Positions 22,870-27,472 of a DNA stretch of 64,000 nt are shown here, in pieces; position 1 is the first letter of the stretch, and each line of letters opens with the position of its first letter. Origin of the DNA: Naegleria gruberi (taxonomy: Eukaryota); assembly GCA_000004985.1 (NCBI GenBank), contig GG738845.1; one strand, 5' to 3'. The translations under genes and the position numbers were made by a program. The notes under the pieces are model-generated. The model had not been told where the DNA came from and ran no database searches. It worked only from the letters and a program-made list of their open reading frames with translations.

Positions 22870-23035
22870 ATGAATTTAATTAAATCTACATGTTTAATAA
22901 TAGTCTTATTTATTTTAATAATAGATATTTCTAAATGTGATGATAATAATGGTGAAATTTCATGGAATGATGAAAATGAGATTTGGTTTGCTCAATCATC
23001 TCCATTTAGCGGAACTTATTCATCAACAGGACAAG
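22870..23035 (+). CDS. Receptor-type nucleotidyl (adenylyl/guanylyl) cyclase, exon 1/3: signal peptide MNLIKSTCLIIVLFILIIDISKC…
   Basis: Real ATG at 22870 (the ORF-track start 22831 is a TTG); GTTTGT donor at 23036. Confidence 0.75.
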
Positions 23036-23086
23036 GTTTGTAAAAATTCTTCTATTATTAATATCAATTTTATCTTCATCTTTCAG

Positions 23087-26000
23087 ATCTTCAAAAAGGA
23101 ATTCTAGAAGCTTTTAATGAAATTAATTTATTGGGAGGTGTATTTGGAAGTAAAAAATTAAAATTAATGAGTCTTGATGATTCATATGAAGCGGATAAAA
23201 CTTTGAGGAATGTAAATTATTACCTTAATTTAAATCAAACATTTTTTGGATTTATTGGATTTTTCGGATCTAGAACAATACAATCTGTATATAAAAGATT
23301 AACATCACTGGGTTATCCACTTATTGGTAGCTATACAGGAGCTCAATTTTTAAGAACACCTTTCAATAGAAATATTATTAATGTTGTAAGACCATCATAT
23401 TATGATGAAGTTGTTTCATTACTTGATTATTTATTTTATAATAAGGATGCAAGAAAAATTTCAATATTTTATCAAACCGATATATTTGGATCTGATGCAT
23501 TCACAGGTGTTGTTGAATCTTTACAATATTTTGGTGTTAAATTATGTTCTCAAAGTCCTTATAATGTTACAACAAATAATTTAAATGATATTGAACAATC
23601 TGTAAAACAATTAGCGAAATGTAATCCAGATTCAATTATTATTGTTGCATTAACAAATGCAACTCAAACATTTTTAAATCATGTTGTAAATTCAAATCTT
23701 TTTAGAAAAGATATTAATATTGTTGCAACATCCATTAATAGTGATACTTTAGTTAGAGTATTGGGATATAATATTTCTTCTAAAATAATTTTTAATCAAG
23801 CAGTTCCTGATCCTATTGATATTACAAATCCATTGGTTGCTTCTTTTCAAAAAGCAAGAAAAGTTTATGATCCCAACTCTAAAGATTTTGGATCTGTTGC
23901 AGAGTTAGAAGGATATTTAATTGGAAAATTTACCTATAATTTATTACAACGAACTAGTGGTAATTTAACTAGAAATAATTTTTTGAATGAATTATATTAT
24001 TCTCAAGAAATTTTAATTGATAGAATGAGAATTGGAACTTTTACTGATTGTTCAAATTCTTCAGGATGTTTAAATGAGTGTAATCAAGGATCTAAAACTT
24101 TTTGGAGAGATAGAGTAACAAGTGAAAATATTCTTAAAACTGTTGATGTTTTTACATGGTATTCTGTTTGTACATCAACACCTTCTTCAATAAGATTTCC
24201 TTATTTAATTGGTCAAATTGTTTTTAAACATGAAAATTATTCCAAAATTAATACATTTTTAAAAGAAGGTATTTATAATGGATTATCTTTAAAAAATATT
24301 AATGGAAATGAGATTCACTTATTGACCTTAGAGTATGAAAATTTTCAAGATTTAATTTCTAAAACTATTGAATTAATAACATCCTATAATGTAGTTGCTA
24401 TTACTGGTATTACTGGACTAGATAATTTTAATGAACAAGAACAATTAATATTTAAAAATTTATTCCTTCAAAACTTTACAGAAATACCCATTATTGGCTT
24501 AATTACAGAAGATCCCAATCTAATGTCACCAAGTGGAAGTAATTTTCTACCAAGTTTTATAAATCTGAAAACAAGTGTTATTGAGCAAATTGCTACATTA
24601 TTGGAATATACATTTGAAAGAGGATTTACTAGAATTTCTATTGTTTATGATTCAAAAAATTACAAACATATTTATGAATATTTATCAAAATTATTAAAAA
24701 TTGTTAATTTAGAAATAGAGAGTGAACATAACTGTGAAGAAAATATTTTATTTAATGCAACTATCAATCCTCATGCAATACTTGTCTCTTGCAATAATGT
24801 TAAAAATGTAATTGAACAAATTGATAATTATTCAAATTTTAGAAATGATGGACTGTTATTAGTTTTAAATGATATTTTTCTTTCTGATAATATTAACAAT
24901 TTATTTATCAAAAGAAAATTAATTTATAGCACTCCATTTAATCATTTCAATAATAGTTCTATTTATTTATTAGAATTATTTTCAATGAATACTAAATATA
25001 CTCAAAATCAAGAATATTTCAAATCTGATATTGCAATTGAGGGTTTTTATATTGGAGATTTTATTTCCTTTATTATGGATAGCCTTTCAGATGCTGGAAA
25101 ACCAATTACTGGTAAAAGTTTTATTGAATATCTATATTCAATAGAGAATATTAATCTTCATGGTCAAGTTATTGGGACATTTAGTAATGTAAAATTACCT
25201 TTATGTAATTTTGGAATAAGGCAAAGATATGTTTATCAACTTAAAGAAAAATTAACTGAGCAAGTTTATACTTCTAAATTTAGTACTGAACAATGTGGTT
25301 TACAACAAGCTATTCAAAGTTTGGATTCTTCATCATACTCAAGACCTTTTCAATTTATTAAATTAGTTAAAACATCAGTCAAATATTATACAGATAGTGT
25401 TATAGTTGAATATCAGGATGATTTTATTGAAGGTGTTAATTCTTACTTTTTAAATCTAAAAGAAGATTCTTCAAAATATTACCCTTTTACCTTTCAAATT
25501 GTAACAAAACTGTATACTGATAACAATGATGTGAAAAGTATCATCAAGGATCTTATCAGTAAGCAACACATGTTTGCATTTATTGACCCTGATATCTCTG
25601 ATACGCTTACTGCATCCTATCTCATTGAACAAAGTAATATTAATCAAATACCAATAATATCATCAGAATCTTCTAATTTAATATTTAGAAAATTTTCAAA
25701 AAATGTATTTAATCTATTACCATCCATAATTGATCAAAGTGTCGCCCTAATTAATTATTTTATAAGTAATTTTCCATCAAAGTCCATAATCATACTTTTG
25801 GAAAATGATAATTATTGGTATGAAAATGATTGGATTAATGATCTATCAGATATTTTGGAAGATGGTTTTGTCATTAAGATTAAAATACAGTCTCTTAACA
25901 CTTATAGACAAGTTAAAGACGATATTTTATTAATATTTACTCAACCTAATAATTTTATTCAATATTATTATTCAAATATCCATAACTTGCAAGACAAACC

Positions 26001-26775
26001 AATTATTGGGCTTATTTCTGATATTTATAATACAATAGAGATATCAGAATTTTTATATTCGCTTAATGATCCTTCATTCATTTATACACCAGTTATTGAG
26101 CTACTAAACGTAAGCTCTTATGTTACTACAAAATTTCATCAAGTTTTTCAAAACTATAATTCAACTTTTCCCTCTTCCACTAACAAAGTATTGAATGGAT
26201 TTATAACGGCATTGTTCATTGATGAAGTATTTGAATCATTTATCAATTTGAAAAACAAGTCTCGAGCTGACTTTTTAAAGAAAGTATATGAAATTTCCTC
26301 TTTTGAATTAGGAGATCTTAAAATTGGCTCATTTATAGATTGTACGTCTACCAATAACAGTCAATGTATGAGTTGTAATCAAGGAATAAGATCTATGATA
26401 ATAGCGAAAACAATAAGAATTGGAGATTTTGTTCAGTTAATAGAATCAGGAAGATATTCTTACGAAACATGTGGTGTTGTAGCATCAACAAAAGACTTGA
26501 CCAGCCATATTTTACTGTTCGTACTTGTTATACTAATTACTCTTGTTATTATTATGATAATCTTACTTTCTATTTTAATATCATACAAGATAATAACTAA
26601 AGGAAAAGAATCACAATATGCACCAATATCAAAAGGTACATTTGCATTTACAGATATTCAAAATTCAACATTTTTGTGGCAAACAAATGAGAAGGCAATG
26701 AAAATTGCTCTTTCAATTCATAACAAAATTATGAGAAGAAATATTAAGATATTTAAAGGATATGAAGTTAAAACA
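23087..26775 (+). CDS. Receptor-type cyclase, exon 2/3: about 1,100-aa ectodomain with LIVBP/ANF-receptor-like periplasmic-binding-protein (VFT) modules, TM helix (HILLFVLVILITLVIIMIILLSILI), start of the class III cyclase domain
   Basis: Acceptor tttcag at 23081-23086; exon begins (D)LQKGILEAFNEINLLGGVFGSKKLKLMSLDDSY, the classic LIVBP motif; GTAAGT donor at 26776. Confidence 0.8.
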
Positions 26776-26815
26776 GTAAGTAGAAAATAATCAATCTAAT
26801 ACTCAAATATATTAG

Positions 26816-27472
26816 CAAGGAGATTCTTTTTTCGTAGCATTTAAAAATCCTGATGATGCAATTCATTGGGCTCTAAAAGTACAATCAGATTTGATGCAAG
26901 CAAAATGGCCATTAGATATTATGACTCAATATGATTGTAGACCTCAATTTGATGAAAATACCAAAAAAATGGCATTTTCAGGATTAAGAGTTAGAATTGG
27001 AATTCATTGTGGTCAAGTTGAATCAGTTAATGATAAAACTGTGAAAAGAATTGATTATTTTGGTTCCTGTATCAACCAGGCTGCTAGAATTGAATCAATT
27101 GCACTTGGAGGAATGGTATTAATAAGTGAAGATCTATTTAATGAAACTGAACATTTATTCAAAAAAATAATATTGGAAGATAGAGTAATTTTGGATATTA
27201 ATACAAACAAGTCAAAACCAATTAACTCAATTTATATTGCTGAGGATTTTGGATACTGTTCTCTAAAAGGTATTAAGGAATTTGTAAAGGTATTTTCAAT
27301 CAGTAATGATGAGACAAAATTTAGAAATTTTGTAAAGGTTGGAAAATCTTTTGAAGATTTGGATAGTCTATCTCTTCTTTCAACAGTATCAAATAGTAAT
27401 AATAATATTCAAAAACAAACAAATATTGCAGATTTCTTAAAAGAAAATCCTTTACCTGTTGAAGAAAACTAG
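26816..27472 (+). CDS. Receptor-type cyclase, exon 3/3: class III cyclase catalytic core …KT|QGDSFFVAFKNPDDAIHWALKVQ…RVRIGIHCGQVESV…GSCINQAARIESIALGGMVLISEDLF
   Basis: 40-nt intron 26776-26815 is in phase; sequence matches the class III cyclase consensus including metal-binding Asp and the GxxxN/AAR region. Confidence 0.8.
   Translation, partial: QGDSFFVAFKNPDDAIHWALKVQSDLMQAKWPLDIMTQYDCRPQFDENTKKMAFSGLRVRIGIHCGQVESVNDKTVKRIDYFGSCINQAARIESIALGGMVLISEDLFNETEHLFKKIILEDRVILDINTNKSKPINSIYIAEDFGYCSLKGIKEFVKVFSISNDETKFRNFVKVGKSFEDLDSLSLLSTVSNSNNNIQKQTNIADFLKENPLPVEEN

Follow-up and report, generated by a model that had tools for sequence, protein, structure and literature searches.

On the plus strand of the analysed window, i.e. 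the whole 64-kb stretch of DNA under study, positions 22870-27472 hold a real and intact gene of Naegleria gruberi, consisting of three exons and two GT..AG introns of 51 and 40 nt and encoding a product of 1503 aa. The initial annotation had placed a gene for a receptor-type class III cyclase here, and its coordinates proved exact: the reading frame starts with the ATG at 22870, the stop codon occupies 27470-27472 and the three exons join in frame. Exon 1 (22870..23035) encodes aa 1-55 and the first base of codon 56, comprising the signal peptide and the start of the first VFT module (VFT1). The GT donor at 23036 closing this exon and the whole of intron 1 (23036..23086, 51 nt, GTTTGT...TTTCAG, phase 1) were read directly from the sequence, and retention of the intron leads to a stop at once. 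Across the exon 1/2 junction the protein aligns without gaps with its N. fowleri ortholog, whose gene is interrupted there too, at the same position and likewise in phase 1. Exon 2 (23087..26775) encodes aa 56-1285: it completes VFT1, contains VFT2, VFT3 and the TM helix and runs 49 residues into the cyclase domain. Intron 2 (26776..26815, 40 nt, GTAAGT...TATTAG, phase 0) lies within the cyclase domain between K-T and Q-G-D, and between the same two codons N. fowleri has an intron of 64 nt. Exon 3 (26816..27472) adds aa 1286-1503 and the stop codon; here the cyclase domain is completed and followed by about 50 aa of low-complexity C-terminal tail. It is supported by the program-made ORF list and by tblastn of the spliced protein against the window, and it aligns with the N. 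fowleri ortholog through the LKGIKE..V strand. This ortholog (FDP41_000890, XP_044564450.1, 1538 aa) is 40% identical end to end and has both introns at identical positions and phases; the N. gruberi paralog NAEGRDRAFT_71740 is only 29% identical.

The protein starts with a signal peptide, followed by three tandem type I PBP/VFT modules; a single TM helix and a linker of about 15 aa then lead to one class III cyclase domain. In a hydropathy scan of all 1503 aa the only hydrophobic segments were aa 1-20 and aa 1191-1228, in agreement with the signal peptide and single TM helix initially proposed. A cleavable signal peptide of aa 1-23 (22870-22938, plus strand) is predicted from hydropathy only. 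The TM helix (26503..26586, plus strand, aa ~1195-1222) reaches Kyte-Doolittle values of up to 3.7 in a 19-residue window. The Pfam search of the full-length protein detected Peripla_BP_6 at aa 43-359 (6.6e-29), Guanylate_cyc at aa 1239-1392 (1.1e-19), the Peripla_BP_A-cyclase family PF25493 above its cut-off (4e-7) and, marginally, ANF_receptor (25.5 bits against a cut-off of 25.4). The same search gave no match to a kinase (Pkinase) or other cytosolic domain and none to CHASE or LRR domains. The initial annotation had described a class III cyclase with a PBP-like ectodomain and without a kinase-homology domain, and these profile matches bear it out. The distance from the TM helix to the start of Guanylate_cyc at aa 1239 is no more than about 15 residues. 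Judged from the sequence, the homology signals for these domains, and for the channel discussed below, are strong and exceed what chance matches would give.

The LIVBP/ANF-receptor motif ILEAFNEINLLGGVFGSKKLKL, noted earlier at the start of the ectodomain, is located at aa 61-82 and belongs to module 1 (22975..24165, plus strand, aa ~36-415), which extends across intron 1 and ends in a Cys-rich CNQG beta-hairpin element. The PDB sequence search matched this module to 4kv7 (E 1.3e-25). It also matched VFT1 of protein P0126 in BLASTP (E 7e-43); we call P0126 "kinetoplastid-type" from its similarity to GRESAG4 proteins (cyclase domain against GRESAG4.3, E 3.9e-47), and it combines Peripla_BP_6, a strong PF25493 match and Guanylate_cyc. 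Module 2 (24166..25290, plus strand, aa 416-790) is an extra middle module, which on its own gave no match in the Pfam search. It is, however, in register with module 1 (BLASTP 1.3e-5; family module-1 HMM 4.8e-12), and modelled alone with AF2 it reached a pLDDT of 84.5 and a pTM of 0.86. The best Foldseek matches of this model in the PDB are type I PBPs, namely 4kv7 (2.7e-15), LivK and 4m88, the latter with TM-scores of 0.70/0.74. Module 3 (25291..26496, plus strand, aa 791-1192) is membrane-proximal and ends in C..CNQG and ETCGV motifs. It resembles module 1 (BLASTP E 1.1e-7; family module-1 HMM 9e-16), shows a weak, sub-threshold Peripla_BP_6 match (8e-4) and aligns, together with TM helix and cyclase domain, to VFT2, TM helix and cyclase domain of P0126 (E 2e-35). 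In an AF2 model of the whole ectodomain (pLDDT 80, pTM 0.70) the order of secondary-structure elements in module 3 is that of modules 1 and 2, and Foldseek relates the model to type I PBPs with target TM-scores of up to 0.83. Internal homology, profile matches and the AF2 and Foldseek results all show that the ectodomain consists of three VFT modules, where "two or three" had been proposed. Modules 2 and 3 are strongly diverged, with substitutions at the S/T-G and D-E sites conserved in the family consensus, and they may bind nothing at all.

The class III catalytic domain (26629..27325, plus strand, aa ~1237-1455) is split by intron 2. All six canonical catalytic residues are present (D1245, D1288, K1284, D1365, N1372 and R1376); following the established class III cyclase literature, we take these positions to serve metal binding, substrate recognition and transition-state stabilisation. 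Their codons, together with that of R1345, lie on the plus strand at 26653-26655 (D1245), 26770-26772 (K1284), 26822-26824 (D1288), 26993-26995 (R1345), 27053-27055 (D1365), 27074-27076 (N1372) and 27086-27088 (R1376), and all seven residues are invariant among the 8 family members aligned. The best PDB matches of the domain are T. brucei GRESAG4.1 and 4.3 (E 5.9e-25), in which all catalytic positions are aligned and identical. Since the substrate pair is Lys1284/Asp1365, i.e. of the ATP type, and the catalytic residues are not degenerate, an adenylate cyclase acting as a homodimer is predicted. Relative to bacterial Ma1120, an insertion is found between alpha3 and beta4, in the same place as in GRESAG4.1. 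This insertion at the position of the Delta subdomain, which has been proposed as an allosteric site, lies between a conserved W and GLRVR and comprises about 24 residues (W1316-G1341) compared to about 40 in GRESAG4.1.

The initial annotation had likened the layout to that of kinetoplastid receptor adenylate cyclases, and the relation turned out to be closer than a shared layout. In BLASTP, aa 33-433 match residues 18-426 of P0126 (E 7e-43) and aa 921-1478 match residues 509-1093 (E 2e-35) in collinear order, and a HMMER search with the exon 2 ORF recovered kinetoplastid-type receptor cyclases with E values of about 1e-41. By this collinearity of ectodomain and catalytic domain, the Naegleria protein is genuinely related to the trypanosome receptor adenylate cyclases. 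In a neighbour-joining tree of catalytic domains (200 bootstraps) the heterolobosean VFT-cyclases fell together, as did the kinetoplastid-type and Euglena sequences (65%); the backbone of this tree is without resolution, fungal Cyr1 and diplonemid soluble cyclase domains falling between the heterolobosean and euglenozoan VFT-cyclases. In trypanosomal cyclases two VFTs are combined with a single TM helix and a single catalytic domain, and the active form is a dimer; the VFT count of trypanosomatid receptor cyclases in general is one or two (PMC6027212, PMC10470820). With the kinetoplastid proteins (T. brucei ESAG4/GRESAG4, T. cruzi TcAC, Leishmania RAC and the Bodo saltans RACs) the Naegleria protein has in common the signal peptide, the VFT array (Peripla_BP_6 and PF25493), the single TM helix joined by a very short linker to one class III catalytic domain, and the Lys/Asp pair for ATP in that domain. 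The first VFTs correspond to each other, and the membrane-proximal VFT of Naegleria corresponds to their VFT2. It differs from them in its extra middle module (three VFTs instead of one or two), in the much shorter insertion at the Delta position, in the cis-spliced introns of its gene and in its free-living heterolobosean host. No similarity to the trypanosomatid-specific C-terminal tail was seen in the Naegleria protein.

Each Naegleria module has the fold of the bacterial LIVBP-type solute-binding proteins (Peripla_BP_6; 4kv7, 3lop, 4m88, LivJ/LivK); for module 1 the Foldseek alignment to 4kv7 shows 24% identity at a target TM-score of 0.76-0.83. The bacterial proteins work with ABC transporters as free components of the periplasm; the Naegleria modules are concatenated, with a Cys-rich beta-hairpin after each, and anchored to a membrane enzyme. 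Dictyostelium ACG carries a CHASE-type sensor, and in fungal Cyr1, which is soluble, the cyclase domain is accompanied by LRR and PP2C domains. Both have a catalytic domain of a related subtype, Cyr1 being among the best word-index matches (42% identity over the catalytic domain), but neither is known to contain VFT modules. ACG and the Naegleria protein agree in that a single catalytic domain follows a single TM helix (PMC10470820).

Taken as a whole, the locus is best explained as encoding a type I membrane receptor-type adenylate cyclase with three outward-facing VFTs which would convert a ligand input into cAMP, a reading to which we assign a probability of about 0.8. Both metal aspartates, the Lys/Asp pair and the Asn/Arg pair for the transition state are on a single chain, so two chains would have to pair head to tail, forming a homodimer with two symmetric active sites. 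By analogy with the class III mechanism and the trypanosome literature, the ectodomains would position the two TM helices and catalytic domains and so set the activity. The most likely input would be a small extracellular solute in the putative cleft of the membrane-distal VFT1, the module nearest to bacterial solute-binding proteins. The two more divergent modules probably act as spacers, help in dimerisation or offer additional binding sites. The cAMP produced would act on PKA, a RegA phosphodiesterase loop and CNBD proteins, including channels like that at 53525-55612. PkaR and RegA are conserved in N. gruberi (PMC4399386).

Ligand gating is an assumption even in the trypanosomal reference family, because more than 30 years of study of these homologues have identified no ligand and they respond to acid, hypotonic or membrane stress (PMC6027212). 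Alternatively, as has been put forward for trypanosomal cyclases and Dictyostelium ACG, the ectodomain might act without any ligand as a sensor or scaffold, whose VFT array dimerises or clusters the protein, or senses membrane, osmotic or pH stress, and binds no specific solute. Activation of the trypanosomal homologues by acid, hypotonic or proteolytic stress with no known ligand (PMC6027212, PMC10470820) and the high divergence of modules 2 and 3 speak for this explanation. However, VFT1 is strongly similar to bacterial solute-binding proteins, as judged by its 4kv7 and Pfam matches, and no other part of the ectodomain is conserved as well across Heterolobosea, euglenids and kinetoplastid-type proteins, as expected for a binding cleft under selection. 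A ligand-independent ectodomain appears rather unlikely, at a probability of roughly one in four.

As described initially, a CNG/HCN-like channel gene lies in the same window at 53525..55612 on the plus strand, separate from the cyclase locus. Its 695-aa product has the CNG/HCN-type layout of a six-TM Ion_trans core (aa 79-329, 9.9e-13), a C-linker and a cyclic-nucleotide-binding domain (cNMP_binding, aa 425-506, 4.3e-17). The GYG pore sequence reads SMAGYGGT in the translation, and the full-length PDB matches are CNGA3, CNGA1 and SthK (E ~1e-61 to 1e-56). It is possible that this channel is a downstream cAMP effector in trans, and it could well respond to cAMP from this or any other cyclase; adjacency adds no evidence to that. 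The initial annotation went further and joined cyclase and channel, both lying in the window, into one minimal pathway. The same strand within one 64-kb window and a phosphate-binding cassette of the channel which looks competent in translation (GE...RTA) would fit a positionally linked, co-regulated two-gene signalling module. Yet the genes are 26 kb apart on a eukaryotic chromosome, and the interval holds ORFs on both strands, of which each one with a Pfam match is unrelated (among them an RNA polymerase subunit, Integrator subunit 2, a TEX10/Ipi1-like protein and exportin-5), the others being matchless. Operon-like gene arrangements are not known from the Naegleria nuclear genome. In N. fowleri the ortholog is flanked by other genes, as far as the readable 10 kb show. 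Furthermore, with about 81-108 cyclase genes in the genus (PMC9928731), chance co-occurrence is not rare. A positional link is not supported: a linked module is very improbable, and the channel is most likely just a neighbour.

Two further explanations are less probable still. A receptor guanylate cyclase, functionally analogous to metazoan NPR/GC-A and supplying cGMP to the CNG-like channel, might be suggested by the marginal ANF_receptor match and by the cGMP-gated CNGA1 and CNGA3 as closest solved relatives of the channel. The metazoan enzymes (NPR-A/GC-A) do share an outer ANF_receptor/LIVBP VFT, one TM helix and a C-terminal dimeric class III cyclase with the Naegleria protein. They have, however, a single VFT and the Glu/Cys substrate pair, in contrast to three VFTs and the Lys/Asp pair of the T. 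brucei adenylate cyclases in Naegleria, and the latter protein lacks the kinase-homology domain and coiled-coil signalling helix, its TM helix and catalytic domain being only about 15 residues apart; guanylate cyclase activity is hardly to be expected.

The public N. gruberi model P0001 comprises 1207 aa, is annotated as "extracellular ligand-binding receptor" and is 100% identical to the exon 2 ORF. It terminates at VKTVSRK*, and reading through intron 2 gives VSRK*, precisely the end of this model. That this annotation is correct, with a stand-alone receptor and the ORF at 26891-27472 as a separate gene or decayed fragment (pseudo-cyclase), would agree with this terminus and with the exon 3 ORF having no ATG of its own in the ORF list, but we consider it highly implausible: the model breaks off within the cyclase domain after the substrate lysine and before the second metal-binding aspartate, removing the 40-nt intron with its canonical GTAAGT..AG ends brings the frame back exactly, the N. 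fowleri ortholog combines the same-codon intron with an uninterrupted cyclase domain, and the downstream catalytic residues are all intact and invariant in the family. The public model is an unspliced truncation without most of the cyclase domain.

The receptor adenylate cyclase favoured here belongs to a wider set of proteins. The same layout was found in relatives from N. fowleri, N. lovaniensis (C9374_000905, C9374_008339), Willaertia magna (ABK040_006396), Acrasis kona (KAL0486290, KAL0491910, KAL0489977), Euglena gracilis (EG_transcript_421, EG_transcript_933) and Rhabdomonas costata (RCo024790). The number of VFT modules varies from one in Willaertia and two in Euglena to three in Naegleria and Acrasis and four in Rhabdomonas, and a conserved C..CNQG motif after each VFT and a common subtype of catalytic domain are found family-wide. 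As far as the searched literature shows, these heterolobosean and euglenid VFT-cyclases are present in databases, yet undescribed. Their occurrence in Heterolobosea and euglenids shows that the receptor-cyclase architecture spans Discoba and is not confined to kinetoplastids.

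The receptor cyclase gene lies on the plus strand of an AT-rich (24-36% GC), eukaryotic sequence and consists of three exons. Exon 1 (22870-23035) opens with ATG and is directly followed by a GTTTGT donor, exon 2 (23087-26775) is enclosed by a TTTCAG acceptor and a GTAAGT donor, and exon 3 (26816-27472) follows a TATTAG acceptor and terminates in TAG. Both introns, 23036-23086 (GTTTGT...TTTCAG) and 26776-26815 (GTAAGT...TATTAG), were read from the DNA. The spliced coding sequence of 4512 nt keeps the frame and encodes 1503 aa, and its bounds are exactly those proposed in the initial annotation (22870-27472).

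The ORF 23131-26790 is 100% identical to a Naegleria gruberi protein listed at NCBI as "extracellular ligand-binding receptor" (P0001, 1207 aa). This public model is the unspliced exon-2 ORF begun at an internal Met, and its C terminus, VKTVSRK before the stop, comes from reading on into intron 2. Both the signal peptide and everything past the substrate lysine of the cyclase are therefore missing, the latter loss amounting to about 80% of the catalytic domain. The gene has thus likely been overlooked or misdescribed in cyclase inventories using this entry.

The N. fowleri ortholog (XP_044564450.1, P0249, 1538 aa) shows 40% identity end to end (BLASTP). Both exon junctions of the N. gruberi model align with it gap-free in an alignment of eight family members, and the N. 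fowleri locus carries a phase-1 intron after SVGQ plus 1 nt and a phase-0 intron after EVKT, i.e. at both N. gruberi positions. The ortholog argues independently for the predicted spliced model.

A hydropathy scan of the 1503-aa protein picked out two hydrophobic segments and no others, aa 1-20 and aa 1191-1228, which indicates a type I membrane topology with about 1170 aa outside the cell and about 280 aa in the cytosol. Scanning the spliced protein against Pfam gave a Peripla_BP_6 match at aa 43-359 (6.6e-29) and an ANF_receptor match exactly at the cut-off, and no kinase, CHASE, HAMP or LRR domain. PF25493, the PBP-like domain of adenylate cyclases, exceeded its cut-off in the full-length protein (4e-7); its match in module 3 was not recovered when that module was scanned alone and counts as weak support.

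The ectodomain comprises three homologous Venus flytrap (VFT) modules, i.e. units of the type I PBP fold, at about aa 24-415, 416-790 and 791-1192, where two or three had been suspected initially. The modules are mutually in register with 22-24% identity (pairwise BLASTP, E 1e-5, 1e-7 and 1e-3), and an HMM of module 1 built from eight family members, run against the six-frame translation, matched module 2 at 4.8e-12 and module 3 at 9.1e-16. Elsewhere within the window, neither the cyclase nor its VFT modules were found again. In an AlphaFold2 model of aa 57-1192 (12-sequence alignment, pLDDT 80, pTM 0.70) the beta-alpha-beta element order recurs three times, and a small beta-sheet with a C..CNQG motif, conserved in the family alignment, closes every module. 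The top Foldseek matches of this model are the type I PBPs 4kv7, 4m88 and 3lop (target TM-score 0.76-0.83). Module 2 alone yielded no Pfam match; modelled separately (pLDDT 84.5, pTM 0.86), it matched LIVBP-type proteins (4kv7 at 2.7e-15, 4m88 with TM-scores of 0.70/0.74) and, at lower ranks, the flytraps of glutamate, GABA-B and taste receptors. To our knowledge, no ligand is established for 4kv7, 3lop or 4m88, the closest solved PBPs.

The catalytic domain was matched by Guanylate_cyc at aa 1239-1392 (Pfam, 1.1e-19). Its best solved relatives are T. brucei GRESAG4.1 (5.9e-25) and GRESAG4.3 (1.5e-24), the mycobacterial Ma1120 being far weaker in the same structure-database comparison (8e-13). 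Following the residue roles established for class III cyclases, D1245 (FTDIQ) and D1288 (QGDSF) are the metal-binding aspartates, K1284 (EVKT) and D1365 (IDYFG) the substrate-specifying pair, and N1372 and R1376 (INQAAR) the transition-state pair. These residues, as well as R1345 (RVRIG), are conserved in the alignments with GRESAG4 and with the eight family members. A check for degenerate catalytic residues, which would mark a pseudo-cyclase, found all key positions intact, and the initial assignment as a cyclase is retained. The Lys/Asp pair predicts ATP and not GTP as substrate. As the full residue set is present in one chain, the active form should be a homodimer with two sites, by analogy with the trypanosomal cyclases, for which dimeric activity was shown (PMC6027212, PMC10470820). 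At the site of the trypanosomal Delta-subdomain, the N. gruberi protein has a shorter insertion, a possible equivalent.

The exon-2 ORF, which contains just the first 49 catalytic-domain residues, served as query in an exhaustive HMMER search of 1.84 billion representatives; this returned 2080 matches at E <= 1e-3, 51 of them at E <= 1e-30. The best 149 of the 2080 matches were sorted by home-made HMMs and hydropathy, and about two dozen of these 149 have the layout of one or several VFTs, one TM helix and a cyclase domain. Besides the N. fowleri ortholog (FDP41_000890), this applies to the N. gruberi paralog NAEGRDRAFT_71740 (three VFTs, 29% identity), N. lovaniensis C9374_000905 and C9374_008339, Willaertia magna ABK040_006396 (one VFT), three proteins of Acrasis kona, two transcripts of Euglena gracilis (two VFTs), a Rhabdomonas costata protein (four VFTs) and the kinetoplastid-type ENA proteins P0126, P0153, P0185 and P0212 (1230-1375 aa, two VFTs). 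PF25493 was strong in P0126 and P0153, the two of these four scanned against Pfam, and the cyclase domain of P0126 matched GRESAG4.3 at 3.9e-47.

The Naegleria protein and P0126 are collinear in BLASTP. Module 1 corresponds to VFT1 of P0126 (E 7e-43), and module 3 together with the TM helix and the cyclase corresponds to VFT2, TM helix and cyclase (E 2e-35). The likeness to the kinetoplastid receptor-cyclase layout claimed in the initial annotation is therefore homology over the entire architecture, module 2 being an addition.

In a catalytic-domain NJ tree, Naegleria and its close relatives form at least three paralog lineages: the cyclase gene with its N. fowleri ortholog (bootstrap 100), NAEGRDRAFT_71740 with N. 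lovaniensis C9374_000905 (92), and N. lovaniensis C9374_008339 with Willaertia (only 60). For N. gruberi itself the count is at least two, with a single copy within the window. Homologs with one to four VFTs in Naegleria, Willaertia, Acrasis, Euglena and Rhabdomonas make the architecture at least as old as the split of Heterolobosea and Euglenozoa, barring a transfer from one group to the other. A single origin in the Discoba ancestor would be the simplest reading; the tree does not settle the deep branches.

The diplonemid proteins P0145, P0165 and P0176 were considered as relatives of the same architecture and rejected. Like P0195, they are soluble and have neither VFT nor TM helix; their cyclase domains, of the same subtype, stand four or five in tandem. 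The four originate from Diplonema japonicum, Namystynia karyoxenos, an 'Hpha' transcript (probably Hemistasia) and a JGI metagenome protein, three of the four sources being diplonemid transcriptomes.

Some 7TM (class C GPCR-like) proteins of other protists also carry the VFT with its C..CNQG hairpin, in two or three copies, and in other protists it forms chains of 6-7 modules with neither TM helix nor cyclase as well. Examples bearing the module are P0110, P0116 (Ceratiomyxa fruticulosa), P0111, P0112 and P0122, among others, as well as P0102 and P0106. The module seems to be a sensor cassette that has been shuffled widely. A JGI metagenome protein of 645 aa (P0006) joins a type II PBP (OpuAC, glycine-betaine-binding type) through one TM helix to the same cyclase subtype, with 45% identity in a BLASTP alignment across the catalytic domain. 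This fusion points to a coupling of the cyclase subtype with solute-binding folds of different kinds.

The ORF 53525-55612 (+) contains Ion_trans and cNMP_binding (Pfam) and, as annotated initially, encodes a true six-TM channel that carries a cyclic-nucleotide-binding domain. The GYG pore and a phosphate-binding cassette with the usual GE...RTA were read from its translation, and among solved structures it is closest to CNGA3, CNGA1 and SthK, a bacterial K+ channel. The pore is of the K+ type, although the animal CNG channels that match the protein best among solved structures are non-selective. The C terminus is extended by about 170 aa (aa ~525-695), for which Pfam gave no match. The channel is a plausible cAMP effector. 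The second part of the claim, a cyclase-channel pathway deduced from position, is not supported. On this eukaryotic chromosome the channel lies 26 kb downstream of the cyclase gene with ORFs on both strands between. Pfam identified an RNA polymerase Rpb3-like subunit, a TEX10/Ipi1-like protein, Integrator subunit 2 and exportin-5 among them; the other intervening ORFs were blank in the Pfam scan, which covered the larger ones. The genus has about 81 or more cyclases, as given in a passage of PMC9928731 citing the genome paper, and the upstream neighbours of the N. fowleri ortholog within a 10-kb flank differ from those in N. gruberi, the ortholog being located close to its contig end. Position gives no evidence for a dedicated cyclase-channel pair.

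About 1.5 kb upstream of the N. fowleri ortholog, on the opposite strand, lies a second cyclase-domain gene (VFQX01000022.1, 5724-8516 (-) of the locus, 930 aa, weak Guanylate_cyc match). The remaining neighbours there (DNA_alkylation, Glyco_transf_61, NlpC/P60) are unlike those of N. gruberi. In N. gruberi, the upstream neighbour 20723-22636 (-) encodes a 637-aa TPR and ankyrin-repeat protein and is divergent from the cyclase gene, the start codons being just about 230 nt apart. Tail-to-tail with the cyclase gene and 9 nt past its stop lies a putative 125-aa ORF with EQPAAIEQP / ETP-type repeats (27481-27858 (-)), which is overlapped by an antisense ORF. The 145-aa ORF 28343-28780 (-) has an internal duplication, GGKSK..LNK..GxDALxG..LKNLKNLRGQDLK being present twice. 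The 1770-aa ORF 11332-16644 (-) contains a REJ domain (receptor for egg jelly / polycystin-1-type) at 5.8e-40, along with an EGF-like match under the Pfam cut-off; its product is a large surface-receptor-like protist protein.

The sequences themselves were already publicly deposited, and automatic annotation lists the N. fowleri ortholog as a cyclase-domain protein. The analysis adds a useful correction of the annotation and a family distribution wider than the literature states. A review heads its section on receptor adenylate cyclases "hallmark of trypanosomatids" (PMC6027212), and the sampling of the large phylogenetic study covers only trypanosomatids and Bodo saltans (PMC7719234). The passages covered of the E. 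gracilis genome paper treat other cyclase subfamilies and mention no periplasmic-binding or flytrap ectodomain, and "receptor-type adenylate cyclase" and "Naegleria" were not found together in the literature searched. Flytrap receptor cyclases, usually treated as a trypanosomatid peculiarity, are thus more broadly distributed; none of these points overturns current understanding.

A small solute probably binds the membrane-distal VFT1, and the ectodomain would set the alignment of the catalytic domains in the homodimer by way of the TM helices and the very short linker. The resulting cAMP would act on PKA, RegA and CNBD proteins; PKA and RegA are conserved in N. gruberi (PMC4399386). The main rival to this mechanism is a ligand-independent sensing of stress or dimerisation, as has been discussed for trypanosomes (PMC6027212). 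A more far-reaching reading is tentative, and we give it a probability of about 0.3. It holds that VFT-TM-cyclase proteins are an ancestral Discoba chemoreceptor converting extracellular solutes into cAMP without GPCR or G protein, of which the free-living Naegleria keeps a less diverged distal flytrap resembling bacterial LIVBP. The triple array may integrate several solutes, or the inner modules may serve as an allosteric relay. Amino acids, aromatic acids or other small nutrients are examples of ligands that could then be identified in Naegleria and help to de-orphanise the trypanosome cyclases. The ligands of the latter are a long-standing question, and free-living relatives with a distal VFT near bacterial solute-binding proteins may be easier to de-orphanise.
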